From: a virus
Taxonomy: Duplodnaviria > Heunggongvirae > Uroviricota > Caudoviricetes
IMG/VR virus record: IMGVR_UViG_2541047846_000008
Location: 1-40,632 of that record
Direction: 5' to 3' (one strand)
DNA: 40,632 bases
A model generated the notes under the pieces. It was not told the DNA's origin, made no database searches, and saw only the letters and a list, made by a program, of their open reading frames with translations. Shown here piece by piece: positions 2,381 to 36,647 of the stretch. The position numbers and the translations under genes were made by a program. Numbering within the stretch: position 1 is the stretch's first letter; the number at the start of each line of letters is the position of its first letter.

Positions 2381-2742
2381 TATGCTCCAGCCTCCAGTGC
2401 TTTTGGCATTACTGCCCAGTGAGTGATGTTGACGTTTTCAAGGTCCCCGACCTGAAATGTCCACTGCCATTCTCCGGTTTCTTTTTGCCCCCATGTATAC
2501 CAGAGAGAACGCCAGCCAATCAGCCAGCCTTCTCCATTAGCATCAAATAACAGAACACTTTCATTCGCTGGCGGCAGTTCAGCTGACACTGGTATTACTT
2601 TGTTTTCCAGTGCTGCACATTTAGCTTCAAGCGCATCAAATTTACGCACCAGGTATTCAGCATCCGTTTCATTCACTTTCAGATCTCGCGGTACACATTT
2701 CCCGCGAAGAAATCCTTCCATTTCGAAAACATTCATGCGCAT
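2380..2742 (-). CDS. Hypothetical protein, YfdS-like (120 aa)
   Basis: 120-aa ORF in a block whose sizes and order match the CPS-53 yfdP-yfdS block; assignment by analogy, not sequence recall. Confidence 0.5.
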   Translation of the reverse strand: MRMNVFEMEGFLRGKCVPRDLKVNETDAEYLVRKFDALEAKCAALENKVIPVSAELPPANESVLLFDANGEGWLIGWRSLWYTWGQKETGEWQWTFQVGDLENVNITHWAVMPKALEAGA

Positions 2743-3269
2743 TTGCGTAACTCCGATAATTCGTTAAAGCGTTCCATAAACATCCCGTAGGCATGGCCTG
2801 GAGCCAGTGGAATCACGTTGAACATCTCTGTTGCCGGGATACCTTCCAGTACAGGCCAGAAAGAGCCATCATCAAGCCCGAGATCGCGGCGTTCGGTTGC
2901 CAGCATGATGAGATCGGCATATTTCACGGGCGTACTCATAACCGGTGGTAACCCGTATTTCTCACGGATTACGGCGTCTATTTTTTCTTCCATCCGTTTA
3001 TAGTCAGGAAGAAGGCGTTTCAGTGGTGCGGGAATGTCCTGGCAATACGCTTCTGTTGCATCATGCATTAACGCTTCAAAAGCAAATTCCTGCGGCACCA
3101 GCTGGCTGCAAAGAACCGCATGTTGGGCGACGCTGTAGAAGTGCGAAAGATGACCGGCAAAGCGACAGATATTTGAAAGGGAAACCGCGATATCGTTAAT
3201 ATCGATGTCGTCTTTATTTATCCTGTCATAATAAAAATGCTTCCCGGAAAAAGTTTTAATAAATGACAT
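2733..3269 (-). CDS. yfdR: HD-domain metal-dependent phosphohydrolase (YfdR-like)
   Basis: HD-domain His/Asp pattern (AGH..H, MHDATE); 178 aa from the internal Met (track ORF 2733..3296). Confidence 0.65.
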   Translation of the reverse strand: MSFIKTFSGKHFYYDRINKDDIDINDIAVSLSNICRFAGHLSHFYSVAQHAVLCSQLVPQEFAFEALMHDATEAYCQDIPAPLKRLLPDYKRMEEKIDAVIREKYGLPPVMSTPVKYADLIMLATERRDLGLDDGSFWPVLEGIPATEMFNVIPLAPGHAYGMFMERFNELSELRKCA

Positions 3270-3396
3270 TTTGTTCTCCACGTATATGCGCTGCACCGCG
3301 CTGAATTCTGCTAAAAAGAATCCCTCACCATCCGGTGATTATTGAGTTAATTACGTTTCCATAAATGCCCCCGCAGGGGCATTTGCAGTAATGAAA

Positions 3397-4221
3397 TCAG
3401 GCGGTGAAAGTACCAATAAAGGTTTCTACTTTGCTGTCTTTGAATTTCTCAACAAGCAGATCACGAAATTCGTTAGCCATTTCTTCCTGCACCGCTTCCA
3501 GCTGAATAATGCGCAGAACCAGTACAGGACGATCGCCAGTGATAATGCTGAGGCGTAATTTAAACGGACGTTCTTTCAGACCTTCAAACGGAACGCATTT
3601 AAATTCAAATGCCACTGGCATAATGTCTTTGGTCTTCGCTTCGACAGACTCCATCAGGGAGCGTTTGCCGCTGAAGTCATTGTCTTCAAAATCAGCGGTC
3701 TGGTTCGCTTCAATTGTGATTTTACGGATCGCCGCAGCCGCTTTGGTTGCCTGAATGGCGTCACCATTAGCATCAAAGCCCACAAGGTAGTCGGCCCAGT
3801 CTTCAATCCATTCTGCCAGTGACTTCTGGGAGTTACGCTCGCCATTAACAGACAACAGAGCATAGAACGGTGCTGTCTTTTTCAGTTTGAGAGTGGCGGT
3901 GTTATCTGCGTGACCTGGTTCATCAATAGTACCCAGGTTAAGCACACTGACGGCTCGCATATTATCGGCATCGATAAAGCAGCGGGTGCCTTCATCTGCA
4001 AGATCTTTAGAATAACGGGTAAAGTCATCGATGCTGGCAGTGGAAAGTGCACCACGGAAACGGAAACGATTTAAATTAAATTTTTCCAGATCATGAATGC
4101 GGAAATTCTCAGGCAATGCCACAGCATCGGCACCAATCTTACTGATAATTTCATTAACACCCTGAGCAGAAATAAGGGCATGGATTTGATTAATTGCGGT
4201 TGAGTCTAAGTTCTGAGACAT
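3397..4221 (-). CDS. yfdQ: YfdQ-like (DUF2303-type) phage protein
   Basis: 274-aa ORF; size and position match CPS-53 YfdQ; symbol by analogy. Confidence 0.55.
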
Positions 4222-4286
4222 AATAAGTCCTCACTATATTAAGATATTCAGTGATGAGATAAATAATCAGTTAATTAAGAACGATA

Positions 4287-4649
4287 TTAATGACCTGCTG
4301 CGCGGAGTTTTCCGTCAGGTTCACCGGCAAGAGTCAGTAATTGTCCCTGGTCTTCCTGCAGAATAGTCAGGCGACCACCGCGATTGACATACATCGGCGT
4401 TTCGGTGGTGTCTTCTTCGGAAATTTTCCCGCGGTTAGTCGGGCGAACATATGAGAGTTTGTGTTTGATTTTCACACGGTTCTCATCAAATGGTTCGATT
4501 TCCAGGTTGAGTGAGACCTTACCTTTGGTTTTCGTGTTCATCACACCTGAAGCGACTTCACTGAGAACTGCGCCGATTTTGGTTTCAAATACGCCGCCGT
4601 CCAGCTCCCCGATAAATGCCTGCACATCAGTACTGCGTTCGCTAGCCAT
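4287..4649 (-). CDS. YfdP-like hypothetical protein (120 aa; start at internal Met MASERS)
   Basis: Track ORF runs to 4835 but the N-terminal 62 codons are Cys/His/Arg-rich and look non-coding; internal ATG gives a 120-aa product. Confidence 0.5.
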   Translation of the reverse strand: MASERSTDVQAFIGELDGGVFETKIGAVLSEVASGVMNTKTKGKVSLNLEIEPFDENRVKIKHKLSYVRPTNRGKISEEDTTETPMYVNRGGRLTILQEDQGQLLTLAGEPDGKLRAAGH

Positions 4650-5520
4650 TTTGCTGCTCCTCATCATATCGACCCTGCAAGGTCGGTTGGTTTCTCCACA
4701 AAACAGAGAAGAACACCTGCGGTGGCAGCCGCCCGGATGGATTGGGTTATGAGCCCGTCGTCCGGTGATGTTCTTCTCTGTTTTGTAAAAAGAGCGGTAC
4801 CAGCCGGAAGCAAGTGTACAAACTGGTACCGCCAAAGCAGTGGCTGTTGTGGTGACCGGTGCTGATCTCCGGCTTGCGGTTATTTCAGACTCTCACGGGC
4901 GTTTAATTGCCCCGCCGAACAGCTCTTTTCCGCAATAGCTGCAATGTCTTTCGCGCATCAGCCTGCGCATTCACCACAACGCTGAGAGCACTTAGCCAGT
5001 TACGGCACCACACTTTGTCGCGGTTCCATAAATGCCCTCATCGTTGCACCCTGGTCTCTTCCCAGGCGTCAAACCGAATCGCCACGCTGGTTAGGCGTCT
5101 TATCAGCATCATCATTGACTTGCACATTCCGGCTACCTGGTTTGTTTGCCCGAGCAAGGAGTGGATTGTCCCCTTTAACGTCACCAGACCGCTAACGACG
5201 CATGTGCCATACGCCGTGTTACAACCAACCTTTCGTTAACAACAGTCTGTTGTTTGTTCAGATAATGATGCTACTAAAAGTAGCAAAAATCAACAACAAA
5301 AAGTAGAAGTGTGTATTTAATTTTTAGTTTTCTATATAACGTTATGAATTAAAAGGTTTTTCACAGATGGGGTGATGTGGCGTAGTTACGTATAGAAAAT
5401 ATCGAGTGTCTTTTGTTTTGGTTTAATTATTAGGTTAATTAGATAGTAATAATTTGGGGGAAAATAGTGGGAACTATGGATACAACGGGTCAGGAACAGT
5501 GTTATTAAGCAGGCTACGAG

Positions 5521-5545
5521 TATAAAACCCGACCGGTTGGTCGGG
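5521..5545 (-). terminator. Rho-independent terminator downstream of the ParA-like gene
   Basis: CCCGACC-GGTT-GGTCGGG hairpin followed on the minus strand by TTTTATA. Confidence 0.6.
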
Positions 5546-5581
5546 CGAGAATTATGTTCGTTCTAAATCATGGTTATTGTA

Positions 5582-6667
5582 TTACAGACACTTGACTACT
5601 GTTGAAACATCAGATTCTAGTGCTTCAATTTGTGCTCTATTAGCTTGGGTCGCCATACCATAGATAGTGTAACTCTTATGCTGCAGCCTACTTAAAGGGC
5701 ATCCCTCATGGTTTATTATTGCTGCAAGAGTATTACCATCTTTGACATTTTGAACTCTCTCGAAAGTAGCCACATTTGTGAACAGATGAGGATGTGTATT
5801 TAACAGGTCATCCGTGATTCTTTTGATCTCTTCTGCATGTGATTTGAATGCTTTTGCTGCATCACTTTCATTAGTTCTTGAGCGGTTTTGTACGAAAAGG
5901 TGTAGTTCAGGTAGTTCGATAAGGTTTTGCTTTGCTTCTTTGTTGAAATCTAAGAACATTTCATCTTGTTCTGACTTGTCAATAGACACTCCATAAATAA
6001 GTTTAACAAGGTTTTTTATTCCGCGAATTGATGCAGCATCGGCAGTGCAAGGGATAATTATTCTATTTGCCGCGACTACTCCCAATTCTGTGTAGCTGGC
6101 AAAACTTGGGTTACAATCAATAAAAAATGTTTTTGCTCTGTCAGAAATGTTTTTATCGGCTTCAAAAGATGCTATTAGATCTACCAGCAAAGATCGGCTT
6201 TTCTTCCATGCTTCTTTTACTGGGGATGAGCCAATGTGAGATATTAAGCGTGAACAGATATCAAGATCGACATCACCAGGAAGAATATATAAGTTCTCTG
6301 GCATTTTTGCATTAACATCATGGGCTCGTACAAAGTAAGAAGATTCATTTCCTAAACGAGACAAAGGAGATTTGCTAAAACGCTCCTTGATATAACCTGC
6401 GATTGTAACATTTCTGTCTCGCAATTTATTTAGATTTTCTTCCCCGGTACCATTGCCACCAAGAATAATTTCTGAAACGTTTGATTGAGGGCATGAGTCA
6501 ATAACCACAACATCTTGATCCGGATGAGATATAGCAAACTCAACGGCAAGATTATATGTAAGAAAAGTTTTTCCTACACCACCTTTGTTGTTCCATACTA
6601 AATATTTTGTATTGGTGGAAATCATATCTGCTACCCCATCTGTCGCTTCAGTACGTTCATTAATCAT
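5582..6667 (-). CDS. ParA/MinD-family P-loop ATPase with ~110-aa C-terminal extension; AT-rich moron next to repressor
   Basis: Deviant Walker A NNKGGVGKT near N-terminus, FIDCNPS and IIIPCTAD motifs; 361 aa; AT-rich; own terminator. Confidence 0.75.
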   Translation of the reverse strand: MINERTEATDGVADMISTNTKYLVWNNKGGVGKTFLTYNLAVEFAISHPDQDVVVIDSCPQSNVSEIILGGNGTGEENLNKLRDRNVTIAGYIKERFSKSPLSRLGNESSYFVRAHDVNAKMPENLYILPGDVDLDICSRLISHIGSSPVKEAWKKSRSLLVDLIASFEADKNISDRAKTFFIDCNPSFASYTELGVVAANRIIIPCTADAASIRGIKNLVKLIYGVSIDKSEQDEMFLDFNKEAKQNLIELPELHLFVQNRSRTNESDAAKAFKSHAEEIKRITDDLLNTHPHLFTNVATFERVQNVKDGNTLAAIINHEGCPLSRLQHKSYTIYGMATQANRAQIEALESDVSTVVKCL

Positions 6668-6901
6668 TATCGTATCCTGTTGTATAGAATTGTCTATTAT
6701 TTATGTTTTATTTTGGTTTTTTTTGTGTTAGTAACGCACCCAAAGATAACATATGGTCTTTATCTTTTCTTACTTAGGGTAACAGCTCAGTGTTAATCCA
6801 TTTTTATGGACCAATGTGCCAAATAAAATTTGTATAAAGATTTTCTATCCTTATCTTTTATCATCTGTGCTCGTTTGCTTTAACGATTGCTAGATGCCTA
6901 A

Positions 6902-7642
6902 TTAAAGTCGATTATATTTAATCGACTCATGAATCAGTGCCTTACCCATAACATAAAGCTGATCTTGCGACTTCTCATCAATGTACCATTTCTCATAGGC
7001 GGGGTTATCCGAAAGAACAGCTAGTTTGTTGCCTTGCATTTGTAGACGTTTAACATGGAAAGTCTTACCGTAAACGAAAGAGTAAACTCCATCAGTCTGG
7101 AAGTGGCGAACGGAAATGTCGACAAACAATCGATCCCCGGAAACAAGAGTTGGGGACATACTATCTCCATTTACCGTCATAACTTTTATATCATTCTGAG
7201 AACGGTTTCCGAAAAGAGAACGGGCATGTTCAGTTGTGAACTCAATGGCGTAGAGCACATCAACATAGTCTGAAAGCATATAGGTCCCAGGTCCTGCGCT
7301 AACGCTAAGATCCAAAACTTCTATCCTGTATACATCGGGCTTTGTTGGATTGGGGATGCTTGCCATTTCCTTACATTCCTCTCTATCTCCAACACCATAT
7401 TCTAGATATGAAGCTGATACTCCAAGAGCCAACGCAAGTTTACTCATGACAGAGACACGTGGCTTCGCTGCGCCGATTGTGTATCGACGAGCCATTTCAT
7501 ATGTAACGCCCACAAGACTTTTGAGTTGAGTGACAGAGATTCCTTTGATTGTCATCAATTCGTTTAGTCTCTTGGCGAAATCTGGATACTTCTGTTCTTC
7601 TACCATAGGTAGAAGATTACTCACATCACACGCGCTAGTCAT
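6902..7642 (-). CDS. CI-like prophage repressor (N-terminal HTH, C-terminal S24 LexA-like autopeptidase)
   Basis: HTH segment followed by VNGDSMSPTL (S24 catalytic Ser) and downstream Lys; divergent from cro; internal ATG start consistent with a leaderless transcript. Confidence 0.85.
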   Translation of the reverse strand: MTSACDVSNLLPMVEEQKYPDFAKRLNELMTIKGISVTQLKSLVGVTYEMARRYTIGAAKPRVSVMSKLALALGVSASYLEYGVGDREECKEMASIPNPTKPDVYRIEVLDLSVSAGPGTYMLSDYVDVLYAIEFTTEHARSLFGNRSQNDIKVMTVNGDSMSPTLVSGDRLFVDISVRHFQTDGVYSFVYGKTFHVKRLQMQGNKLAVLSDNPAYEKWYIDEKSQDQLYVMGKALIHESIKYNRL

Positions 7643-7644
7643 TT

Positions 7645-7680
7645 CTATTTTAAGTAGTTGCAATTTGCTATTTTAAGTAG
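7645..7680. promoter_or_regulatory. Operator region of the cI/cro switch: two copies of CTATTTTAAGTAG
   Basis: 13-bp partly palindromic direct repeats at about 7645..7657 and 7668..7680 between divergent cI and cro. Confidence 0.5.
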
Positions 7681-7712
7681 CATCATCCCTCTGAATTTCA
7701 GAGGAGAAAGGT

Positions 7713-7976
7713 ATGTCATCTCAAAACTACACAGAGAAAGCAGTAAAGGCTGCGGGAAAGTCTTTATCTGAAGTAGCCCGTCGCTTTGGTTTTAAGTCCA
7801 CTCAATCCGTCGCCAATTGGGTAATTAACAATCAAGTCCCGTCAGAACGGGTTTTACAACTTTGTGAGTTGGGAAACTGGTCCGTGACCCCTCATGAACT
7901 GCGTCCTGATATTTACCCCAATCCAAATGATGGATTACCTGAGTGCTATTCAAAAGTTAGCGGTTCAACTGCGTAA
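7713..7976 (+). CDS. Cro-like HTH regulator (YdaS-family-like)
   Basis: 87-aa ORF with GAGGAG RBS, divergent from cI; HTH-like core. Confidence 0.6.
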   Translation: MSSQNYTEKAVKAAGKSLSEVARRFGFKSTQSVANWVINNQVPSERVLQLCELGNWSVTPHELRPDIYPNPNDGLPECYSKVSGSTA

Positions 7977-8004
7977 ACGTAACCACAGAAACGAGGAATG
8001 AACC

Positions 8005-8589
8005 GTGGGTAAAGAACCTGAATGGAAAGTTGATAAGCAACCAGCATGGCTGGTGGCAGCAATACGAAGAACGATTGCTGATTTACCTCATGGCTATGAG
8101 GAAGCAGCGGAAATTCTTGGTTTGTATAAATCTGATGATATCACCCCAGCGAAAGATCAATTGCATAACAGACTGCGTAGCGGTGGGGATCAAATTTTTC
8201 CACTTGAGTGGGCCATGGTTTTACAGGATGCCAGTGGTACCAGGCATGTAACGGATGCGATAGCGCGTCGTAGTAATGGGGTGTTTGTGCCGCTGGTGGA
8301 CATTGATGACATTGACAATGGTGACATTAATCAGCGGCTGATGGAGTCAATAGAATGGATTGGCAAGCATTCCCAGTACTTACGCAAGGCAACTGCTGAT
8401 GGAGTTATTGACCAGGCTGAGCGTGAGCAAATCGAAGAGAACAGCTACCAAGTAATGGCGAAGTGGCAGGAGCATTTAACACTGTTATTTCGTGTTTTTT
8501 GTGCGCCGGAAAAGAGTAACGCCCGCGAGTGTGCAGCTCCGGGCGTCGTGGCGTCGATTGCTTCTGGTTGTGGAGAAACTAACGCATGA
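8005..8589 (+). CDS. YdaT-like / CII-type early regulator (GTG start)
   Basis: 194-aa ORF directly after the cro-like gene, the lambdoid cII position. Confidence 0.45.
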
Positions 8590-8924
8590 ACAGTTTAACC
8601 ACACACTACCGTCGCTCGCAACTGATTGCGCTTCCTGTACCGGGTGGAAAAGCGAAGGTGGAGTATTGCTATGCGGTGAATGTACCAGGTGACAGGGAAA
8701 TTGTAACCCACAGCTTTGCAGAGTGGGCTGTGGGTGATTTCAACCGGCAGAAGGAGACAGTCCTTTGCAACAAGTTAACCGCTGGTTCAAAGATCACTAC
8801 GGAGTGCCCGTCAGAGTCATTCGTTGGGAACCGGAAACACAACGGGTTATCTACCTCCGCGAAGGCTATGAGCATGAGTGCTTCAGCCCGCTCGAACAGT
8901 TTCGTCGTAAATTCAGGGAAATAG
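8586..8924 (+). CDS. Hypothetical protein, probably frameshifted (C-terminal half continues in another frame to about 8944)
   Basis: ATGA overlap with upstream gene; frame-0 C-terminus is low-complexity while the alternate frame from about 8738 reads protein-like to a stop overlapping the next start. Confidence 0.3.
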
Positions 8925-8933
8925 AGGTCGGTC

Positions 8934-9875
8934 ATGAGCACTAAATTAACCGGCTATGTATGGGATGGTTGCGCTGCGTCAGGCATGAAGTTATCCAGCG
9001 TGGCAATTATGGCCCGCCTGGCTGATTTCAGTAATGACGAAGGTGTGTGCTGGCCATCAATTGAAACCATTGCCCGCCAGATTGGCGCGGGGATGAGCAC
9101 CGTCAGAACGGCTATCGCACGGCTGGAAGCAGAAGGCTGGTTAACGCGTAAGGCGCGTCGCCAGGGTAACCGCAATGCGTCGAATGTTTATCAGCTTAAC
9201 GTTGCGAAGCTTCAGGCAGCGGCATTTTCTCAACTGTCAGATTCTGACCCGTCAAAATCTGACGCATCAAAATCTGACCAGTCAAAATTTGATGCGTCGA
9301 AATCTGGCAAAAAAGCGGGTTTTCACCCGTCAGAATCTGGCGGGGATCCGTCAGTAAAATCAAAACATGATCCGTCAGATAAAAAAACTTCTCGTCCGGA
9401 CGCTTCGCAACCGGACACGCAGACGGCTGAACAGGAGTTTTTAACTCGCCATCCTGATGCGGTTGTATTCAGCCCTAAAAAGCGCCAGTGGGGAACGCAG
9501 GATGATTTGACCTGCGCACAGTGGCTCTGGAAAAAAATCATCGCCCTGTACGAGCAGGCCGCCGAATGTGACGGCGAGGTGGTTCGTCCCAAAGAACCGA
9601 ACTGGACAGCCTGGGCAAACGAAATTCGCCTTATGTGTGTGCAGGATGGTCGTACTCACAAACAAATCTGCGAGATGTACAGCCGCGTCAGCCGCGATCC
9701 GTTCTGGTGCCGTAACGTGCTCAGCCCGTCGAAGCTGCGGGAAAAATGGGATGAGCTTTCCCTGCGCTTATCGCCGTCCGTCAGCACGTACACCGAAAAA
9801 CGCGAAGACCCGTACTTCAAATCCAGTTACGACAACGTGGACTACAGCCAGATCCCGGCAGGATTCAGGGGGTGA
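8934..9875 (+). CDS. Replication initiation protein (N-terminal HTH, central repeat linker, DnaT-like C-terminal region)
   Basis: N-terminal HTH typical of phage replication initiators; SKSD-type pentapeptide repeats encoded by DNA iterons. Confidence 0.65.
   Translation: MSTKLTGYVWDGCAASGMKLSSVAIMARLADFSNDEGVCWPSIETIARQIGAGMSTVRTAIARLEAEGWLTRKARRQGNRNASNVYQLNVAKLQAAAFSQLSDSDPSKSDASKSDQSKFDASKSGKKAGFHPSESGGDPSVKSKHDPSDKKTSRPDASQPDTQTAEQEFLTRHPDAVVFSPKKRQWGTQDDLTCAQWLWKKIIALYEQAAECDGEVVRPKEPNWTAWANEIRLMCVQDGRTHKQICEMYSRVSRDPFWCRNVLSPSKLREKWDELSLRLSPSVSTYTEKREDPYFKSSYDNVDYSQIPAGFRG
9237..9311 (+). repeat. Iteron array (five 15-bp phased repeats, core TCAAAATCTGAC), candidate origin of replication
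   Basis: tcagattctgacccg / tcaaaatctgacgca / tcaaaatctgaccag / tcaaaatttgatgcg / tcgaaatctggcaaa, with degenerate copies to about 9389 and an A-rich tract. Confidence 0.55.
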
Positions 9876-10366
9876 TCATGAGTCTTTTGAATGAAGTTCA
9901 GAAATTCATTGAAGCCCATCCGGGGTGTACTTCCGGAGACATTGCGGATGCTTTTGCAGGTTACTCACGGCAGCGCGTTCTGCAGTATGCAAGCAAGTTA
10001 CGTCAGAGTGGGCGTGTGGCTCACCGTTGTGAAGGAGATACACGCAGACATTTCCCGCGCCTGACTGAGAGAGCGAAGGAGCTGGAACCACAACCAGTTC
10101 GTGAAACCAGACCTGTGCGCAATTTCTATGTCGGCACTAACGATCCACGGGTGATTTTGTGCCTGACCCGCCAGGCTGAAGAACTGGAGTCCAGGGGCTT
10201 ATACCGTCGTGCTGCAACGGTGTGGATGGCGGCATTCCGTGAAAGCCACTCCCAGCCAGAACGAAACAATTTTCTGGCACGTCGTGAGCGGTGCTTACGG
10301 AAAAGCAGCAAGCGCGCTGCATCGGGTGAAGAGTGGTATCTGTCAGGGAATTTCGTGGGGGCTTAA
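9872..10366 (+). CDS. Putative regulatory protein with PerC-like C-terminal motif
   Basis: 164-aa ORF with ATGA overlap; motif AEELESRGLYRRAATVW resembles PerC/Pch activators (from memory). Confidence 0.35.
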   Translation: MIMSLLNEVQKFIEAHPGCTSGDIADAFAGYSRQRVLQYASKLRQSGRVAHRCEGDTRRHFPRLTERAKELEPQPVRETRPVRNFYVGTNDPRVILCLTRQAEELESRGLYRRAATVWMAAFRESHSQPERNNFLARRERCLRKSSKRAASGEEWYLSGNFVGA

Positions 10367-11019
10367 TGAGTAATAAATATTGCCAGGCGCTGGTGGAACT
10401 GCGGAACAAACCAGCCCATGAACTGAAGGAAGTGGGCGATCAGTGGCGCACGCCGGACAACATTTTCTGGGGAATTAACACCCTGTTTGGCCCGTTTGTT
10501 CTGGATCTGTTCACTGACGGTGATAACGCCAAATGTGCTGCGTATTACACGGCGGAAGACAACGCGCTGGCGCATGACTGGTCAGAACGTCTTGCGGAGC
10601 TTAAAGGGGCTGCCTTTGGTAATCCCCCATACAGCCGCGCCAGTCAGCATGAGGGGCAATACATCACCGGCATGCGTTACATCATGAAACATGCCAGTGC
10701 CATGCGTGATAAGGGGGGGCGCTATGTTTTCCTGATCAAAGCTGCCACCAGCGAAGTGTGGTGGCCGGAAGATGCGGACCATATTGCTTTTATTCGAGGG
10801 CGTATTGGTTTTGAACTGCCTGCCTGGTTTATCCCGAAAGACGAGAAGCAGGTACCGACAGGCGCTTTCTTCGCTGGTGCTATTGCTGTTTTCGACAAGA
10901 CCTGGAAGGGACCGGCAATCAGCTACATCGGGCGCGATGAACTTGAGGCATGTGGTGAGGCCTTTCTGGCGCAGGTTCGCCAGCAGGCAGAAAAACTGGT
11001 CAGGGAGATGGCGGCATGA
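10366..11019 (+). CDS. Phage DNA N6-adenine methyltransferase (Dam-like), orphan
   Basis: NPPY catalytic motif (GNPPYS); start overlaps upstream stop; no restriction partner in window. Confidence 0.8.
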   Translation: MSNKYCQALVELRNKPAHELKEVGDQWRTPDNIFWGINTLFGPFVLDLFTDGDNAKCAAYYTAEDNALAHDWSERLAELKGAAFGNPPYSRASQHEGQYITGMRYIMKHASAMRDKGGRYVFLIKAATSEVWWPEDADHIAFIRGRIGFELPAWFIPKDEKQVPTGAFFAGAIAVFDKTWKGPAISYIGRDELEACGEAFLAQVRQQAEKLVREMAA

Positions 11020-11342
11020 CGACGTTAACTCAATGCCAGCAGCAGGTGCTGGATATGCTGATTTCTTATCAGAAAGAACGTGGCTTCCCGCCAACCAATC
11101 AGGAGGTGGCAACCATGCTGGGATACCGTTCAGTGAATGCAGCGGTGGAGCATCTTCGCGCACTGGAGAAAAAAGGCGTCATCACGATAAAGCGTGGTGT
11201 GGCCCGGGGGATCACGCTTCATACCGCAGTGAAGGACGACGACAGCGAAGCGGTCGGGATTATCCGCTCACTGCTTGCCGGTGAGGAAAACGCAAGGCTG
11301 CGTGCAACTCACTGGTTACATGAGAGAGGCCTGAAAGTATGA
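11016..11342 (+). CDS. LexA N-terminal DNA-binding-domain-like protein lacking the peptidase domain
   Basis: Pattern LTxxQQxVLDxxxxxxxxxGxPPTxxExAxxLGxRSxNAAxEHLxALxxKGVIxI matches the LexA winged-helix domain; 108 aa, no S24 domain. Confidence 0.65.
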   Translation: MTTLTQCQQQVLDMLISYQKERGFPPTNQEVATMLGYRSVNAAVEHLRALEKKGVITIKRGVARGITLHTAVKDDDSEAVGIIRSLLAGEENARLRATHWLHERGLKV

Positions 11343-11728
11343 AGCTGATCCTGCCTTTCCCGCCCAGCGTGAACACGTACTGGCGACACCCCAACAAAGG
11401 GGCATTTGCTGGTAAGAGCCTGATAAGCGCGGCGGGGCGAAAATTTCAGAGCGCGGCGTGTGCAGCAATAGTTGAGCAGTTACGTCGTCTGCCAAAACCA
11501 ACGTCGGCACCTGCTTCAGTGGAGATCGTGTTGTTTCCTCCGGATAACCGGATCCGCGATCTGGACAACTATAACAAGGCGCTGTTTGACGCCCTGACCC
11601 ACGCGGGTGTGTGGGAAGACGACAGTCAGGTGAAAAGAATGCTGGTGGAGTGGGGACCGGTTATCCCGGAAGGGAAGGTCGAGATCACTATCAGTAAGTA
11701 CGAGAAAACGGCGGGTGCAGCCGCCTGA
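11339..11728 (+). CDS. rusA: Holliday junction resolvase RusA
   Basis: 129 aa; LPxPPSxNxYWRH, DLDNYxKAxxDALT and WxDDSQV motifs characteristic of RusA. Confidence 0.85.
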   Translation: MKLILPFPPSVNTYWRHPNKGAFAGKSLISAAGRKFQSAACAAIVEQLRRLPKPTSAPASVEIVLFPPDNRIRDLDNYNKALFDALTHAGVWEDDSQVKRMLVEWGPVIPEGKVEITISKYEKTAGAAA

Positions 11729-11747
11729 TTAAGAGGAGAAACGAAGT

Positions 11748-12557
11748 ATGAATAATCTGATGGTCATTGATGGTATTGAAGTTCGTCGTGATGCTTATGG
11801 GCGTTACAGCCTGAACGATCTGCATCGCGCAGCAGTAGCATCTGGTGCAAATGCCAGAACCAAGGAGCCGGGAAAGTTTCTTTCCAGCCAACAAACTGTT
11901 GAGCTTGTTCATGAATTGACCAACACCCAGAATTTGGGTGTTGACCCGGTGAGTGTGATTCATGGGGGAAATGAACGGGGAACGTATGTCTGCAAGGAAC
12001 TGGTGTATGCCTATGCAATGTGGATCAGCCCGTCATTCCATCTGAAGGTGATCCGTACTTTCGATATGGTAACCAGCGCACCGGAAAAATTATCCGGACA
12101 GGCTGCTGACAAGATGCAGGCTGGCGTGATCCTGCTGGACTTTATGCGCCGGGAATTAAACCTGTCTAACTCTTCAGTGCTTGGTGCCTGTCAGAAACTC
12201 CAGGAGGCTGTTGGCTTACCGAATCTGGCACCGCGCTATGCCATTGATGCTCCTGCTGACGCGCCTGATGGCTCAAGCCGCCCCACGCTGTCACTGAGTG
12301 CACTGCTGAAGCAGTATGGTATCCGCCTGACAGCTAATCAGGCATATCACCAGATGGTGAAACTGGGGATCGTCGAGCAGCGCGAACGATACAGCCGTAC
12401 CGCGATTAACAACATCAAAAAATTCTGGTCGCTGACAGCGAAAGGTTGCATGTTCGGCAAGAACATCACCAGTCCCGCAAATCCGCGCGAGACGCAGCCG
12501 CATTTCTTCGAATCCCGATTCCCTGAGCTGTTAAAGCTGCTCGATACCGTTCATTGA
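11748..12557 (+). CDS. KilA-N domain protein (antirepressor-like)
   Basis: N-terminal KilA-N-like segment; strong RBS GAGGAG. Confidence 0.55.
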   Translation: MNNLMVIDGIEVRRDAYGRYSLNDLHRAAVASGANARTKEPGKFLSSQQTVELVHELTNTQNLGVDPVSVIHGGNERGTYVCKELVYAYAMWISPSFHLKVIRTFDMVTSAPEKLSGQAADKMQAGVILLDFMRRELNLSNSSVLGACQKLQEAVGLPNLAPRYAIDAPADAPDGSSRPTLSLSALLKQYGIRLTANQAYHQMVKLGIVEQRERYSRTAINNIKKFWSLTAKGCMFGKNITSPANPRETQPHFFESRFPELLKLLDTVH

Positions 12558-12558
12558 G

Positions 12559-13554
12559 GTGACCGTGAGAGCACTACTGACCCCTGAAATTGCCCCGCGT
12601 ATGGGGATCGTATTGTTCAGGCCAGGTTCAGAGCTGATGCCCCTGTTTATGCAGGGGCGTGTTCTGCTGGAGCCTGAGCCGGAACGTTATTCATCTTTCG
12701 CCAGTGGTGCCGTTCCGGCGGCATCACAACCGCTGGCGGATGATCCTGCCGTTCGGGCCGTGTTCCGCAATGAGGCAGTGATCCGTCGTGCTGGTGGCGT
12801 GGAATGTCTTGAAAGCTGGTTACTTCGTGAAAAAGGCTGCCAGTGGCCTCATTCCGACTGGCACAGCGAGAACATGACCACAATGCGACACGCTCCGGGC
12901 GCAATCCGTCTGTGCTGGCACTGCGATAACCAGCTGCGCGATCAGTTCACGGAACGGCTGGAATCAATGGCAACGGATAACTGTGCCCGCTGGGTGTTGT
13001 CTGTTGTGCGTCGGGATCTCGGTTTTGATGACAGTCACGTTGTGACAATGCCGGAACTGTGCTGGTGGCTGGTTCGTAATGATCTGGCGGATGCCTTACC
13101 GGAAAGCGCAGCCCGTAAGGCACTGAGATTACCGAATCCTGTTGTGCCGTCTGTCACCCGGGAAAGTGACCTTGTGCCTTCGGTTCCTGCCACCAGCATC
13201 ATCCAGGATAAGGCGAAAAAGGTGCTGGCGCTGAAAGTGGATCCGGAGTCGCCGGAGTCTTTTATGTTACGCCCAAAACGTCGCCGCTGGGTTAATGAAA
13301 AGTACACGCGCTGGGTTAAGACACAGCCGTGCGCATGTTGTGGAAAGCCTGCTGATGATCCTCACCACCTGATAGGCCACGGTCAGGGGGGAATGGGTAC
13401 AAAAGCGCATGACCTCTTTGTGTTGCCTTTGTGCAGAAAGCATCACGACGAGCTGCATGCGGATACCGTGGCATTTGAAGAGAAGTATGGCTCCCAGCTG
13501 GAGCTGATATTTCGTTTTATCGATCGTGCGCTGGCAATAGGCGTACTGGCGTAA
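12559..13554 (+). CDS. DUF968-family protein with C-terminal HNH-like zinc motif (GTG start)
   Basis: C-terminal CACCG..HHLIGHG..CRKHHDELH motif; nin-region position. Confidence 0.55.
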   Translation: MTVRALLTPEIAPRMGIVLFRPGSELMPLFMQGRVLLEPEPERYSSFASGAVPAASQPLADDPAVRAVFRNEAVIRRAGGVECLESWLLREKGCQWPHSDWHSENMTTMRHAPGAIRLCWHCDNQLRDQFTERLESMATDNCARWVLSVVRRDLGFDDSHVVTMPELCWWLVRNDLADALPESAARKALRLPNPVVPSVTRESDLVPSVPATSIIQDKAKKVLALKVDPESPESFMLRPKRRRWVNEKYTRWVKTQPCACCGKPADDPHHLIGHGQGGMGTKAHDLFVLPLCRKHHDELHADTVAFEEKYGSQLELIFRFIDRALAIGVLA

Positions 13555-13567
13555 GTGGAGAACGAGC

Positions 13568-14320
13568 ATGAACCTTGAAGCCTTACCAAAATATTACTCC
13601 CCAAAATCTCCAAAATTGAGCGATGACGCACCGGCGACAGGCTCAGGTGGTTTAACGATTACGGATGTGATGGCTGCGCAGGGGATGGTGCAGTCGAAAG
13701 CACCGCTTGGGTTTGCCTTATTCCTGGCAAAAGTTGGTGTTCAGGATCCTCAGTTTGCGATTGAAGGTCTGCTCAATTACGCGATGGCACTGGATAACCC
13801 GACATTGAATAAATTGAGTGAAGAAACCCGGTTACAGCTCATCCCTTACCTTGTGAATTTTGCCTTTGCTGATTATTCCAGGTCTGCGGCAAGTAAGGCT
13901 CGCTGTGAGCATTGTGCTGGTACTGGATTTCATAATGTATTGCGCGAAGTGGTGAAACACTCCAGAAGCGGGGAATCAGTTATCAAGGAAGAGTGGGTGA
14001 AGGAACTATGTCAGCATTGTCATGGTAAGGGAGAAGTCAGCACAGCGTGCAGAGGGTGTAAGGGTAAAGGTATTGTCCTGGATGAAAAAAGGACCCGGCT
14101 TCATGGCACGCCTGTTTATAAGATTTGTGGGCGTTGCAATGGAAACCGGTTTAGCCGTTTACCAACCACACTGGCGCGGCATCATGTCCAGAAGCTGGTA
14201 CCAGACCTGACGGATCATCAGTGGTACAAAGGATATGCAGATGTCATTGATAAACTGGTGACAAAGTGCTGGCAGGAAGAAGCATATGCTGAGGCGCAAT
14301 TAAGAAAAGTGACAAGATAA
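13568..14320 (+). CDS. Late-gene antiterminator Q-like protein (zinc-binding)
   Basis: Four CxxC pairs; sits immediately upstream of the pR'-like promoter, tR'-like terminator and lysis cassette. Confidence 0.55.
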   Translation: MNLEALPKYYSPKSPKLSDDAPATGSGGLTITDVMAAQGMVQSKAPLGFALFLAKVGVQDPQFAIEGLLNYAMALDNPTLNKLSEETRLQLIPYLVNFAFADYSRSAASKARCEHCAGTGFHNVLREVVKHSRSGESVIKEEWVKELCQHCHGKGEVSTACRGCKGKGIVLDEKRTRLHGTPVYKICGRCNGNRFSRLPTTLARHHVQKLVPDLTDHQWYKGYADVIDKLVTKCWQEEAYAEAQLRKVTR

Positions 14321-14351
14321 ATGATTTTCGCCGAAGATGGCGACATGATGC

Positions 14352-14389
14352 TTGCATTTTTCAAAAAATCTGGTTAGGATTTTCCTAAC
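14352..14389 (+). promoter_or_regulatory. Candidate late promoter (pR'-like) with adjacent hairpin (possible qut region)
   Basis: TTGCAT, 17-bp spacer, TAGGAT; overlaps perfect hairpin GTTAGGA-TTT-TCCTAAC. Confidence 0.4.
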
Positions 14390-14430
14390 GATGGGCTTTG
14401 TATGTCTGCCGTTAACGAAATCATAACAAA

Positions 14431-16076: not shown

Positions 16077-16507
16077 AGATGAGTTATTGGGCGCTCATTT
16101 TAACGTTTATTGCTTGTGTCGCTGGTGGTCTTGTCTGGTCAGCGAATCACTATCATGGAAAGTTTCTGGAGGAGCAGAAGCGTGCTGATGCTGCGGAACA
16201 GCGAGCTGATTCTACTGAGGCTATCACCGCGAATGTTCTGCGTACTATGGCAATAACGAACATCATTCAGGAGGCGAATCAACATGCAAAACAGCAGATC
16301 GCACTGGAGTCACAGAGAACCCAGGAAGATATCAAAGTGGCTGTTGCGGATGATGATTGTGCTTCACGTCCTGTGCCTGCTGCCGCTGCTGACCGGTTGC
16401 GGAAGTACGCGAACAGTTTACGTAACAGTACCTCCAATTCCGCTTCCAGCTACTCTGACTTTGGAAACGCCAGTACCGCACATACCAGATACCCTGACCT
16501 ATGGTGA
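16073..16507 (+). CDS. Rz-like inner-membrane spanin (i-spanin)
   Basis: N-terminal TM helix then charged coiled-coil region; follows endolysin. Confidence 0.7.
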   Translation: MKMSYWALILTFIACVAGGLVWSANHYHGKFLEEQKRADAAEQRADSTEAITANVLRTMAITNIIQEANQHAKQQIALESQRTQEDIKVAVADDDCASRPVPAAAADRLRKYANSLRNSTSNSASSYSDFGNASTAHTRYPDLW

Positions 16508-16598
16508 CAGCCTGGAGTTGAATGTGAGTCTGTTGTCGGCGTTGGAACAGTGTAATTTTGATAAAGCGACAATAAAAAGTATTGATGCTAACAAGTAA
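16350..16598 (+). CDS. Rz1-like outer-membrane lipoprotein spanin (o-spanin), nested in and extending beyond Rz
   Basis: Alternate frame within Rz; signal peptide with lipobox LLTGC; Pro-rich mature region. Confidence 0.65.
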   Translation: MMIVLHVLCLLPLLTGCGSTRTVYVTVPPIPLPATLTLETPVPHIPDTLTYGDSLELNVSLLSALEQCNFDKATIKSIDANK

Positions 16599-16660
16599 AA
16601 GAGCCTGCACCTTTATAGAGATGATTCCATGTTAATATCGCTCCTCTAACGGGAGGCATT

Positions 16661-17152
16661 ATGATGGATTGGAATATGTGGTCTGCTATTGGGGCTTGTG
16701 GTTCGGCTATCGCGTCTTTTGGGGCGTTGTGTTATGCCCGTAAGGCGTTAAACACATGGAATAGACAGGAGCAATTTAAAGTAAAGTTAGAGTTTAAGAG
16801 AGCTTTACTTCAGTTGGAGGATGCCTTTGAGGCAATGCCTGATAATTGGAATTCCGTACAGTATAGAATAGCCAAAACATTTGCGTCTCAGAGGGGCAAC
16901 GATATATATAATGGAGTTGTTGAGGCTGAAAAACAGCTGTTTTATAAAAAACAAAACCTTAATTTAGCGTACGGACATTCCGTACAGGCATGGGTTTTGT
17001 GTGAAGAACTGTTTAAAGACAATACTATTCATGATGAATGGAAAGCTTTCAGAATTAGTTATGATAATTACATTCTGAATGGTGGGAACAAAAATGATTA
17101 TTTGCCAATGATAAAAAATATATATTCAAAAATTCCTGTGTTTAATGGTTGA
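16661..17152 (+). CDS. Membrane-anchored hypothetical protein (AT-rich moron between lysis and packaging)
   Basis: 163 aa; one N-terminal TM segment then soluble domain; GGGAGG RBS; AT-rich. Confidence 0.6.
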   Translation: MMDWNMWSAIGACGSAIASFGALCYARKALNTWNRQEQFKVKLEFKRALLQLEDAFEAMPDNWNSVQYRIAKTFASQRGNDIYNGVVEAEKQLFYKKQNLNLAYGHSVQAWVLCEELFKDNTIHDEWKAFRISYDNYILNGGNKNDYLPMIKNIYSKIPVFNG

Positions 17153-17200
17153 TTTCTATACGAAATGGACAATATGTTCCATCTTTTTTAGGGAAATTAT

Positions 17201-27397: not shown

Positions 27398-29222
27398 ATT
27401 TGAGCTTAAGGCGTTGATCACCGGTGTCGACAGGCTTTCTCCCGCGCTGTCGAAAATGCAAAAGAAAATCCGGGGATTTAAACGCCAGGCGGAAGAAGCG
27501 TCACAGGGTGGGCTGGCGCTTGGTGGCGGACTGGCAGCGGGTCTGACGCTTTCCCTGAAATCTTATGCCGATCAGGAAAACGCCGCCACCGGGCTGAAAG
27601 TCGCCATGATGGATGCGAACGGCGAGGTTGGAAAGAGCTTTCAGGACATCAATAAACTGGCTATTGGCCTGGGTAACCAGCTACCTGGTACAACGGCTGA
27701 TTTCCAGAACATGATGCAGATGCTGGTGCGTCAGGGGATCCCGGCAGAAAACATTCTGGGTGGTGTGGGTAAAGCGACAGCTTATCTTGCGGTACAACTG
27801 AAAAAAACACCGGAAGCGGCTGCTGAGTTTGCAGCAAAGATGCAGGATGCTACCGGAACGGCGTCAGAAGACATGATGGGGCTGTTCGACACTATCCAGA
27901 AGGCGTTTTATCTGGGCGTTGACGATACCAACATGTTGTCCTTCTTCACTAAAACCAGTTCTGTTCTGAAGATGGTGAACAAGGACGGTCTTCAGGCTGC
28001 GCAGAGCCTTGCCCCCATCAGCGTCATGATGGATCAGATGGGGATGAACGGGGAGTCGGCAGGTAATGCCCTGCGAAAAGTTATCCAGTCCGGATTAAGC
28101 GTTAAGAAAATCAGGGACGTTAATAAAGTTATGGCCCGCCAGAAACTCGGGGTACAGCTCGATTTTACTGACGGCAAAGGAAGTTTTGGCGGTCTTGATA
28201 ACATGTTCAGGCAACTGGCAAAGCTGCGAAAACTGACCGACGTTAAGCGAACAGGTGTACTTAAGGCAATATTTGGTGATGATGCCGAAACCCTTCAGGT
28301 GGTCAATGCACTAATCGATAAAGGAAAGGATGGCTACGATCAGATCCAGCAGAAGATGAATAAACAGGCCAGCCTGAATAAACGTGTTCAGGCACAGCTT
28401 GGTACGCTGTCCAACCTGTGGGAGGCAATGACAGGGACCGCAACTAACGGCCTTGCGGCTATTGGCGGCGCATTTTCTGGTGACGCTAAAAATATCACAC
28501 AATGGCTGGGGGAGTTGGGGGAGAAATTCACGAAGTTTGCGGATGAAAATCCCCGGGTTATTCGCGGCGTCGTCGGGCTTGCTGCCGGTCTTGCGATTCT
28601 GAAACTGGGATTGATGGGCGTGGGCAGTGCCATCAGTATTGTCAGCAGGATTATGTCGATGACGCCGATTGGCATGATTGCGACGGCGATTGCTCTGGCT
28701 GCGGGATTAATTATCACTAACTGGGATGTTGTCGGACCTTATTTTAAGAAGCTCTGGGAAACCATTGGTCCTTATTTTGAGGCTGGCTGGGAACTTCTGA
28801 AGAAAGTTTTTGCCTGGTCGCCGCTGGGAATGGTGATCAATAACTGGGGACCGGTTGTTAAGTGGTTTCAGGATATGTGGGACAAGCTGAAGCCAATTAT
28901 TGAGTGGTTTACCGACAGTTCCGGTGACACGGTCGATGCCATTAACTCTGCGCAGTGGGGCGCGGGTGCTTATGATGCTTATGGGACGGGAATACCGGCG
29001 CGGGGATACACACCTTATCCGGCGGTGGATCCGGCTCAGTCAAACAACGCCTCCGATGCCACAGGCTCGAATCCCTTCATGATTAACAAAGCTTCTGTGC
29101 CAAAAGTTGATGGTGAGATCAAGGTATCTTTTGTGAATTCGCCTCCGGGTATGCGGGTTATGGAAACGCGATCCAGCGGTTTTGATGTCAGCCATGATGT
29201 TGGCTATACGTGGTTCAGGTAG
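27390..29222 (+). CDS. Tail tape measure protein
   Basis: 610 aa, helical N-terminal half, Gly-rich hydrophobic central TM-like region; conserved position. Confidence 0.85.
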   Translation: MAEFELKALITGVDRLSPALSKMQKKIRGFKRQAEEASQGGLALGGGLAAGLTLSLKSYADQENAATGLKVAMMDANGEVGKSFQDINKLAIGLGNQLPGTTADFQNMMQMLVRQGIPAENILGGVGKATAYLAVQLKKTPEAAAEFAAKMQDATGTASEDMMGLFDTIQKAFYLGVDDTNMLSFFTKTSSVLKMVNKDGLQAAQSLAPISVMMDQMGMNGESAGNALRKVIQSGLSVKKIRDVNKVMARQKLGVQLDFTDGKGSFGGLDNMFRQLAKLRKLTDVKRTGVLKAIFGDDAETLQVVNALIDKGKDGYDQIQQKMNKQASLNKRVQAQLGTLSNLWEAMTGTATNGLAAIGGAFSGDAKNITQWLGELGEKFTKFADENPRVIRGVVGLAAGLAILKLGLMGVGSAISIVSRIMSMTPIGMIATAIALAAGLIITNWDVVGPYFKKLWETIGPYFEAGWELLKKVFAWSPLGMVINNWGPVVKWFQDMWDKLKPIIEWFTDSSGDTVDAINSAQWGAGAYDAYGTGIPARGYTPYPAVDPAQSNNASDATGSNPFMINKASVPKVDGEIKVSFVNSPPGMRVMETRSSGFDVSHDVGYTWFR

Positions 29223-29249
29223 TGTACAAAATGATTAATGTGTTTTTGT

Positions 29250-29295
29250 CTGGCATAATTTGGGTTTTCAGCTTTAAGTAGTTAATATAATCATT
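29250..29295 (+). promoter_or_regulatory. Promoter-like -10 elements upstream of the secreted-protein moron
   Basis: CATAAT and perfect TATAAT hexamers in an AT-rich gap; -35 elements weak. Confidence 0.3.
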
Positions 29296-29321
29296 CCTTA
29301 CAAATGATTGAAGGGATGATT

Positions 29322-29816
29322 ATGCGTATCTTTGTTTTTTTTATATCTGCACTTTTATCTTTTAACTTGGCTGCGGAAGAGTGTAAGTTCAGCTTTAATG
29401 AGTCAGAATTAATCTCTTCTATAGGTATTGCACCAGTTAAGCAAGAGATAATAAAGGATGAAGGAATAACTAAGCGGCAATATGAATTCAGAAGAGAATT
29501 ATCTTCTGAAGAAATGCTTAGTGATGACGCTGATGAAAAATATGAGCCGCAGTTTTATATATCTGTTTATAATCCATCATGCCCACAAAAGGTTATTGTT
29601 TGGTTTTTCAAAGACAATAAAAACACAATGGATTTAAGTAATGAGGTCCTTGCTGGTAGAGCGTTCAAGTATTTAACTGGTGTTAATGAAAGTATTTTTG
29701 AAAATAAAATGAAAAAGTTTTTAAAGGTACAGTCATTTGAATCTTTTGATGAAAGGACAGATTCTAAATTTATAAAGAGTGGTGATATTTATTCCATTGA
29801 TGTTCAACTCAGATAG
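29322..29816 (+). CDS. Secreted/periplasmic hypothetical protein (AT-rich moron inside the tail operon)
   Basis: Signal-peptide-like N-terminus MRIFVFFISALLSFNLAAEE; GAAGGG RBS; AT-rich; own promoter-like and terminator-like elements (track ORF starts 29304). Confidence 0.6.
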   Translation: MRIFVFFISALLSFNLAAEECKFSFNESELISSIGIAPVKQEIIKDEGITKRQYEFRRELSSEEMLSDDADEKYEPQFYISVYNPSCPQKVIVWFFKDNKNTMDLSNEVLAGRAFKYLTGVNESIFENKMKKFLKVQSFESFDERTDSKFIKSGDIYSIDVQLR

Positions 29817-29835
29817 TAATTAAAAATATTAGGTT

Positions 29836-29891
29836 CCCGCCACATCTTCTGCGATGTAAATAACTGACAAAGCAGATTTGGCGGGTTTTTT
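29836..29891 (+). terminator. Terminator-like structure after the moron
   Basis: CCCGCCA ... TGGCGGG outer stem around internal small hairpins, followed by TTTTTT. Confidence 0.45.
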
Positions 29892-29906
29892 GTATCCGGA
29901 GTTTAT

Positions 29907-36247: not shown

Positions 36248-36647
36248 GCCATTCAATATCGGGTGCTGTTGAAGTATCAACACGCATCAGCAGCACACGG
36301 TATTTCTTCCATTCGGTGAGAGTTGAAGTTTCTTCATCAGTTGCGATATCAGCATCAACAGCATCCTGACGCCAGGATATTTCACTGTCAGCTTTTTCCC
36401 GTAATTGGGATTTTTTAACTTCAGCAATAGCTATTAATTCCTTTTTGGTCGGCTGAGGAATATCTATCAGTGCTGGTTTTCCATTCAGTGTTCCAATCTG
36501 TTTTCCTGGTGGAATATCCATAAATAACTTTTTATGTTCTTCCTCACTGACTATTACACCATCATCAGGCCACAGACCTGATGCCTCAAATTTTTCTTTC
36601 TCCGATATGGGGAAAAAGCCATTTGATTTAGCGCTCCATACGTACAT
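36219..36647 (-). CDS. Tail fibre assembly protein (Tfa), alternative copy in inverted orientation
   Basis: 142 aa; C-terminal motif [15 protein letters not shown]; convergent with the other Tfa. Confidence 0.75.

Follow-up and report, generated by a model that had tools for sequence, protein, structure and literature searches.

A ParA-like ATPase gene behind the repressor of an Escherichia coli prophage, a probable ortholog of the anti-phage defense gene gipd474

The gene and its place in the prophage

A ParA-like ATPase gene located directly behind the repressor gene of an E. coli prophage was characterized by computational analysis. The DNA is IMG/VR virus record IMGVR_UViG_2541047846_000008, and the whole 40,632-nucleotide (nt) stretch is referred to here as the window. 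We consider it likely that the gene is the E. coli ortholog of gipd474, which would make it a prophage-borne, single-protein anti-phage defense and AT-rich, self-terminated cargo behind the repressor. The defense function is essentially already known from the work on GiPD474, and the finding is not new as a discovery. The features of the locus and of the prophage end are as follows.

5240-5526, no strand: AT-rich (GC 0.34) non-coding tail of the inserted segment, from GC content and comparison with slot-empty relatives
5527-5546, minus: intrinsic-terminator-like hairpin, GCCCGACC-AACC-GGTCGGGT followed by a T-run, from a terminator scan and reading of the sequence
5582-6667, minus: ParA-like ATPase gene, GiPD474-type, 361 aa, from the open reading frame (ORF), Pfam and PHROG matches, family alignment, and predicted structure
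6491-6493: codon for Cys59 of the ParA-like protein
6668-6901, minus: AT-rich spacer (GC 0.30) of 234 bp from the repressor stop to the ParA-like gene, from GC content and site scans
6902-7663, minus: cI-type repressor with HTH_3 and Peptidase_S24 domains, from the ORF and Pfam; RefSeq has a 705-nt version
7713-7976, plus (divergent from the repressor): cro-like gene with a YdaS/HTH domain, from Pfam
8005-8589, plus: cII-like gene that completes the immunity region, from Pfam
38033-39130, minus: tyrosine integrase at the prophage end, mapping beside dusA
39219-40256: dusA, adjoining the integrase

The first-pass annotation of this DNA, made from the sequence alone, had described an AT-rich gene with its own terminator, located on the repressor strand directly downstream of cI and encoding a 361-aa product with a deviant Walker A motif. 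All of these points were borne out. The ORF is real, and residues 26-34 of its product read NNKGGVGKT, which is the deviant Walker A motif of the ParA/MinD type with its signature lysine (KGGVGKT at residues 28-34). The GC content of the ORF is 0.378 (0.276 at third codon positions), compared with 0.501 for the whole window and 0.303 for the spacer upstream. The repressor gene lies 234 bp upstream on the same strand.

The hairpin on the minus strand (5546-5527) has an 8-bp stem with 6 G-C pairs and a T-run, and it stands 36 nt past the stop codon of the ParA-like gene. It is the sole terminator-like site across 5200-7800. Shuffled sequence gives 1.7 +/- 1.3 such sites, so a single site is within chance, and the case for a terminator rests on the position and quality of the hairpin, not on statistics. 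On the upstream side, a Shine-Dalgarno sequence, AGGA, is found at 6678-6675, 7 nt ahead of the ATG. Neither a terminator-like site nor a convincing promoter was found in the spacer between the two genes, so the ParA-like gene is most likely transcribed by read-through from the repressor promoter. The sole promoter-like hexamer pair in the spacer was rejected because, ending 2 nt short of the ATG, it could not drive an mRNA led by a ribosome-binding site. Also, alignment of the upstream regions of orthologs did not reveal a portable promoter, as they are not conserved past the bases near the ribosome-binding site that are shared with Salmonella.

Related prophages were compared at the same place. 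The sequence shared with mEp460, phiSTEC1575-Stx2k, and Ayreon stops at about 5239, and in these phages a repressor follows within about 100-150 bp. The AT-rich segment of about 1.6 kb is therefore an insertion into an otherwise empty slot. Stx2c phages and cdtI are also among the slot-empty relatives whose shared sequence ends there. Other Gifsy-1 variants carry remAIN at this position; in Gifsy-1 of Salmonella Typhimurium 14028s, the corresponding place is occupied by this three-gene defense (PMC12724215).

The integrase gene abuts dusA, which indicates that the element is an integrated prophage and agrees with the earlier description of it as integrase-dependent. The early region (2392-14413) shares 99% identity with a segment of a prophage of E. 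coli strain 2020N21-246-1, and the late region (15700-40632) matches a dusA-inserted myovirus-type prophage of other E. coli strains. The window is therefore a mosaic, with an early region that matches lambda-like siphovirus prophages and CPS-53-like prophages joined to a late region of the dusA-integrating myovirus type. This arrangement suggests that the repressor and the ParA-like gene move as a cassette between unrelated prophage backbones. Among 5,426 complete E. coli genomes, 71 (about 1.3%) carry the ParA-like gene, as a single copy each and at least 99.7% identical, and it is always accompanied by the same repressor. The prophage backbones and attachment sites differ among the carriers (tRNA-Thr in strain 2EC1, dusA in the window).

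Correspondence to GiPD474

GiPD474 was reported as a single-gene anti-phage defense by Bosma, Noireaux and Bowden (Appl Environ Microbiol 2025; PMC12724215). Poor plating of phage Felix O1 (FO1) on S. Typhimurium 4/74 was traced to the Gifsy-1 prophage and then to one gene of its immunity region, gipd474 (STM474_RS13505), which is 1,086 nt long (361 codons). Its product has GGVGKT at residues 29-34, an AAA_31 domain, and ParA, Soj, and MinD as structural neighbors. The gene is located in Gifsy-1 of S. Typhimurium 4/74 and in Gifsy-3 of 14028s. Deletion of gipd474 restored FO1 plating, and a low-copy clone lowered it and gave about 5 logs of protection against T4 and about 5.5 logs against Alf5. 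The clone was protective in E. coli K-12 too. GiPD474 was without effect on T7, SP6, LPST153, Jbel, VpaE1, and S16. Expression of the gene exceeds 500 transcripts per million in exponentially growing lysogens. Homologs with at least 70% identity and 70% coverage fall into three clades, clade I being that of Salmonella and Escherichia, and they adjoin repressor, cro, and cII genes with the integrase farther on. The authors describe the mode of action as unknown and suggest a post-adsorption step (PMC12724215). No other paper mentioning gipd474 was found in our literature search.

At 90% identity, the 361-aa protein of the window clusters with S. Typhimurium proteins, and it is 93% identical to them over its full length of 361 residues. 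These S. Typhimurium sequences sit in Gifsy-type prophages, and the contig with the 93% variant has Gifsy-1/Gifsy-2 DNA at 97% identity on its flanks. The window protein and GiPD474 have in common the length of 361 aa, the position of the Walker A motif, the AAA_31 domain, and the slot beside repressor, cro, and cII. As described for GiPD474, the window gene is a single gene of the immunity region and the element has an integrase. Orthology is strongly supported by the 93%-identical sequences together with these matching descriptors, and the alleles are predicted to share their function. The first-pass annotation had suggested a single-gene exclusion or defense function in a cargo slot next to cI, and the published phenotype of the 93%-identical allele supports that suggestion.

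The E. coli allele also differs from the Salmonella genes in several ways. About 7% of residues are substituted relative to the 93%-identical S. Typhimurium sequences, mostly at residues 1-18 and 297-302. The E. coli allele is preceded by an S24-type repressor and a close (93%) variant by a short non-S24 one. The E. coli allele lies in a dusA-integrating myovirus-type prophage, unlike GiPD474 in Gifsy-1 and Gifsy-3.

Other prophage defenses occupy comparable positions. RemAIN, from Gifsy-1 of S. Typhimurium 14028s, is prophage-encoded and uses the same immunity-region slot in sister Gifsy prophages. Compared by description, RemAIN consists of three genes, the RemA ATPase, the RemI immunity protein, and the RemN HEPN anticodon nuclease, while the window gene is single. 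RemA has been described as weakly ParA-like (PMC9879122) and RemN as a HEPN protein (PMC13043305). In the window, there is no HEPN neighbor, and the terminator 36 nt after the stop is followed by no more genes on that strand before a yfdP-like gene. The remAIN genes are reported to have no homology to the Gifsy-1 immunity region of 4/74 (PMC12724215). Lambda RexAB, P22 SieB, HK022 Nun, and BstA are likewise cargo next to the repressor, on the repressor strand, and expressed in the lysogen. However, these are membrane or ion-channel proteins, a transcription terminator, and KilA-N proteins, with no relation in sequence or fold to the ParA-like protein. Defense-discovery papers that mention ParA were also considered and proved irrelevant to this gene.

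Fold, active-site signature, and distribution of the family

Pfam matched AAA_31 (E 3e-16, residues 24-227) and CbiA in the 361-aa protein. The PHROG match is phrog_164, "ParA-like partition protein" (E 2e-46), and it covers residues 9-350, which is nearly the full length. The product is named "ParA family protein" in RefSeq (WP_000606712.1). Scanning NCBIfam gave ParA, MinD, BcsQ, and ArsA P-loop matches only, all below threshold. No real match was found in PADLOC-DB v2.0.0, where the only hit was Drt5 at noise level (E 0.007, 13.6 bits). The key residues are the signature lysine K28, K33 and T34 of Walker A, D57 of Walker A', Cys59, and D184 of Walker B. Since the signature lysine, the ParA/Soj fold, D57, and D184 are all present, the protein belongs to the deviant Walker A ATPases.

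One earlier claim was not borne out. The first-pass annotation had given the protein about 110 extra C-terminal residues of unknown fold, but the AlphaFold model, built from a 40-sequence alignment, is a single compact ParA-fold domain (predicted local distance difference test, pLDDT, 87.5; predicted template modeling score, pTM, 0.88). Profile and structure searches recovered the ParA/Soj fold along the protein, and Foldseek alignments to Soj, McdA, and ParA cover about 347 query columns. With hhalign, query residues 19-222 were matched to residues 2-163 of Soj, which served as a ruler only. The impression of an extension arises because the Pfam AAA_31 model is short and stops at residue 227. 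Because the match takes in nearly the whole of a 255-residue ParA, the last 139 residues of the query must supply the ParA C-terminal part of about 90 residues. The roughly 110 excess residues are spread out, with about 18 at the N terminus, about 42 inside 19-222, and about 49 inside 223-361. Used as a profile against Protein Data Bank (PDB) sequences, residues 250-361 gave nothing significant. The weak resemblance of VKDGNTLAAIINHEG to LytE LysM repeats (E 0.7) was put down to chance, since this region superposes on the ParA C-terminal subdomain. In the predicted structure, then, the last third is the C-terminal subdomain of ParA, diverged beyond sequence recognition. Among family members this third is highly conserved (e.g., KDGNTLAxIxNHxG at 309-322). 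Residues beyond about 275-288 are colored as an "unknown domain" in the GiPD474 paper (PMC12724215), and the model reassigns them to the ParA fold, which is new. Ten longer, distant relatives (440-600 aa) have no additional Pfam domain, i.e., no domain fusions.

The family carries an unusual residue at its active site. All 120 distinct members taken from the fetched loci, down to 31% identity, have Cys at position 59, in the motif D-x-C-P-Q-x-N. Also invariant in these 120 are W25, N26, N27, K28, G29, G30, G32, and K33, then D57, C59, P60, Q61, and N63, and farther on D184, N186, P187, S188, P206, D210, N261, and D310. Among the best 150 representatives of an exhaustive profile search, the motif was readable in 97, with Cys in 86, Ser in 4, and Asp in 7. 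C59 aligns with the second Asp of D-x-D-P-Q, both in PDB 3pg5 ("VDCDPQCN") and in Soj, and D57 and D184 align with Soj in hhalign. In ParA proteins, the catalytic Asp activates the attacking water, and its loss leads to ATP-bound, hydrolysis-deficient sandwich dimers. The Foldseek matches include PDB entries titled HpSoj D41A and McdA(D38A)-ATP. We take these to be mutants at the Asp equivalent to position 59 that are used to trap ATP-bound complexes. With the residues for ATP binding and dimerization kept and the catalytic residue missing, a slow-hydrolyzing, ATP-dependent dimer acting as a switch or clamp is favored. The invariant Cys at the position of the catalytic Asp thus suggests an ATP-bound dimer switch instead of a cycling partition ATPase. 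The Cys-for-Asp signature is not mentioned in the GiPD474 paper (PMC12724215).

Canonical ParA, Soj, and McdA proteins (PDB 8ray, 8jmj, 6noo, and 2bek) work with a ParB- or McdB-type partner and a centromere, and the window protein is without either. Compared with canonical ParA, it is also about 110 residues longer, through an N-terminal tail and insertions, and it has a Cys in place of the catalytic Asp of D-x-D-P-Q, a score below the NCBIfam partition cut-off, and an ortholog, GiPD474, whose phenotype is phage defense. PDB 3pg5 (DIP2308 of Corynebacterium diphtheriae) is an uncharacterized ParA-like protein that is also 361 aa long. It retains the catalytic Asp, though, and is structurally no closer to the window protein than plain ParA is.

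The searches returned more than 1,000 homologs, almost all of them 335-365 aa in length. Identity is 55-67% in Campylobacter, Aggregatibacter, Acinetobacter, Moraxella, Azospirillum, Gallionella, and cable bacteria. A two-motif scan of species-representative genomes found relatives in 418 stretches, including a few archaeal metagenome-assembled genomes (MAGs), and the exhaustive profile search gave 121 cluster representatives at E < 1e-30. When ORFs were clustered across 161 loci from 48 lineages, no conserved neighbor was detected except repressor-like genes directly upstream on the same strand. A repressor-like gene holds this place in 45 of the 77 loci on viral contigs, and these repressors form 11 clusters at 50% identity. 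The Klebsiella phage ST11-VIM1phi8.2 has a repressor followed by a ParA-like gene with 83% identity, and the Pseudomonas phage phi297 has the same order at 38% identity. In a lineage with 31% identity, the ParA-like gene lies between cI and the N antiterminator gene, which is the position of rexAB in lambda. The order in that lineage (7049-11227 of its stretch) is cI (S24), the ParA-like gene, N, a pentapeptide-repeat protein gene, and a P22 gp17-type superinfection-exclusion gene, which suggests several accessory genes in one early-left operon.

Members of the family also occur outside such prophages. A 351-aa relative with 35% identity is widespread on non-mobilizable plasmids of about 75-145 kb in E. 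coli, E. fergusonii, and Salmonella. On the IncY P1-like plasmid pRHB32-C05_4 of E. fergusonii, this relative (7001-8056 of its stretch) follows icd, antirepressor, and helix-turn-helix (repL-like) genes. As the plasmid has a ParB family gene elsewhere, the position of the relative looks like a cargo slot. Lone ParA-like genes stand between housekeeping genes in Aggregatibacter, Electrothrix, and Alysiella. Elsewhere, the gene is found in an integrase/AlpA island in Campylobacter, beside HicAB in an Acinetobacter prophage, and in Azospirillum beside Cas9-Cas1-Cas2, RhuM, and flanking IS1595 transposases. In two independent Azospirillum contigs, the homolog is directly preceded by a small DUF6471 gene (6681-6911 and 176-406), and a second DUF6471 copy is nearby on the first of them (10515-10778). 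No HEPN neighbor was seen among the sampled loci of the family.

This distribution is that of a self-contained, horizontally mobile single-gene module, compatible with defense and not with partition. Compared with the published family, which is limited to Enterobacteriaceae, the reach seen here is far wider, and throughout this range the gene is solo and its product has one ParA fold. Also new is its repeated occurrence behind repressors of many kinds, as read from the loci.

Mode of action, alternatives, and other features of the window

The phenotype, the sufficiency of a single gene, the function in E. coli K-12, and the expression in lysogens were published by others for the 93%-identical ortholog. 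What we infer beyond these is co-transcription with the repressor, dimerization, slow hydrolysis, and the mode of interference. In the E. coli lysogen, the ParA-like gene would probably be transcribed together with the repressor. The lysogen would then be protected after adsorption against particular lytic phages, which for the Salmonella allele are T4, FO1, and Alf5.

If the protein does act in defense, a tentative mechanism is that of an ATP-bound switch that captures a phage-specific factor. ATP binding would produce the sandwich dimer typical of deviant Walker A ATPases. Replacement of Asp by the invariant Cys would slow hydrolysis and give a long-lived switch or clamp, not a cycling partition motor. 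The dimer could recognize a protein or nucleoprotein complex that is specific to the phage and is made early in infection. By sequestering or mislocalizing it, the dimer would directly block phage replication or assembly. Since the protein has no effector domain and no partner gene, its action must go through contacts of the ParA type. The differences in sensitivity between sister phages (T4 vs S16 and Jbel; Alf5 and FO1 vs VpaE1) point to a specific phage determinant, and the unusually high conservation across phyla points to a conserved interaction surface as well.

Several points weigh against this interpretation. The link to GiPD474 runs through the 93%-identical S. Typhimurium sequences and the matching descriptors. 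About 7% of the residues of the E. coli allele are substituted, and its defense role is predicted from the Salmonella allele. No promoter could be assigned in the spacer. The lack of a PADLOC match counts for little here, as it only shows absence from a 2023 catalogue. A Cys at the catalytic position could still permit hydrolysis or other chemistry. An identity of 55-67% across classes is unusual for a sensor of fast-evolving phage proteins. Finally, every mechanistic step is one that we infer.

The alternative that survives best is abortive infection by self-toxicity, which we regard as unlikely but worth setting out. Here, on sensing infection, the ATP dimer would target a conserved host structure (for example, the nucleoid, the replication initiator, or the division machinery), in the manner of Soj and MinD, and the infected cell would be arrested or killed while the clone is protected. 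The absence of an effector domain and partner fits this explanation, as the effect must come from interactions of the ParA type. The very high conservation across phyla is easier to reconcile with a conserved host target than with a variable phage one, and the protein functions unchanged in Salmonella and E. coli. Also, abortive infection or a toxic nuclease is the mode of action of the neighboring Gifsy defenses HepS and RemAIN. However, the gene is expressed constitutively at a high level with no reported toxicity, and the fine specificity between sister phages would still need a phage-specific trigger.

A role in lysogeny control or prophage competition is considerably less probable. In such a case, the protein would be made with the repressor and modulate the induction of its own or co-resident prophages, with resistance to external phages as a side effect. 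This would explain the tight placement behind at least 11 repressor types and the constant repressor partner in E. coli, and RemAIN, in the equivalent Gifsy slot, has been reported to block not only incoming phages but also the lytic cycles of co-resident prophages. Yet many family members are neither next to a repressor nor in a prophage, and the cloned gene alone protects hosts unrelated to the prophage against strictly lytic phages.

Partition was also considered. As the first-pass annotation had stated, no parB- or parS-like partner is present. No ParB-type gene was found in the element, either in the RefSeq annotation of near-identical prophage segments or in Pfam scans of the stretches that these leave uncovered. 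Within 5200-7000, there is no centromere-like repeat array, just short two-copy matches. The score for NCBIfam NF041546 (ParA_partition) is 48.9 bits against a cut-off of 180. The authors of the phi297 study read its ParA-like gene, the 38% homolog, as an orphan partition gene (PMC3564109). An orphan partition or maintenance ATPase that stabilizes an excised or plasmid-state prophage, as proposed there and as said of Soj on PAPI-1, has in its favor the ParA fold with an intact nucleotide site and homologs on 160 plasmid records, but it is very improbable and was rejected, as the earlier doubt about a partition role anticipated: ParB and centromere-like repeats are missing, the element is integrated and has an integrase, the NF041546 score is far under the equivalog cut-off, lone chromosomal copies stand among housekeeping genes, the IncY P1-like plasmid with the 35% relative has its own ParB family gene, the catalytic Asp needed for the ATPase cycle is missing, and the ortholog GiPD474 shows a direct defense phenotype.

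Anti-phage defense remains the preferred explanation, and it has practical consequences. A ready-made barrier to T4-like and Felix-O1-like phages would be present in about 1.3% of complete E. coli genomes, among them O145:H28 and other pathogenic lineages. Such a barrier in E. coli prophages is relevant to phage therapy and biocontrol. The invariant Cys offers a concrete, testable handle on a defense protein that lacks an effector domain. A broader proposal, which we consider doubtful, is that the whole D-x-C-P-Q clade, found in many bacterial phyla and a few archaeal MAGs, consists of effector-less, single-protein immune ATPases, whose long-lived ATP dimers might capture, coat, or mislocalize phage DNA or nucleoprotein on the nucleoid. 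If true, these ATPases would represent a defense principle distinct from nuclease, NADase, membrane, and tRNA-cleaving effectors, and a new function for the fold of the positioning ATPases.

Other features of the window were noted along the way. At the left end, 1-420 and 460-680 are AT-rich (GC 0.39) with a 139-aa ORF that has no Pfam match, and near it lie a gene like PrtN, the pyocin activator (681-989), and a gene for an Rv2179c-like 3'-5' exoribonuclease (999-1574). The early-right operon includes an annotated LexA family regulator of 108 aa (11016-11342), a length that fits only the DNA-binding part of LexA.

After the lysis genes, 16423-17190 (GC 0.41) is unmatched in the otherwise 99%-identical SK6988 prophage. 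That prophage has a gene for a GrlR-family regulator around the equivalent position, which makes this another variable spot. Within the tail module, the genes for the tape measure and for DNA circularization are separated by a second, strongly AT-rich patch (29001-30000, GC 0.36-0.40). A near-identical prophage encodes a 164-aa hypothetical protein at this place (16547-17041 of that stretch), and the patch may be another cargo gene.

The tail-fiber region (35213-37579) is the least conserved part of the window relative to the closest prophages. After the tail fiber come a gene annotated as "recombinase family protein" (37016-37579) and oppositely oriented tail-fiber assembly genes, which together suggest an invertible host-range segment. 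A DinI-like gene is located at 37723-37971.

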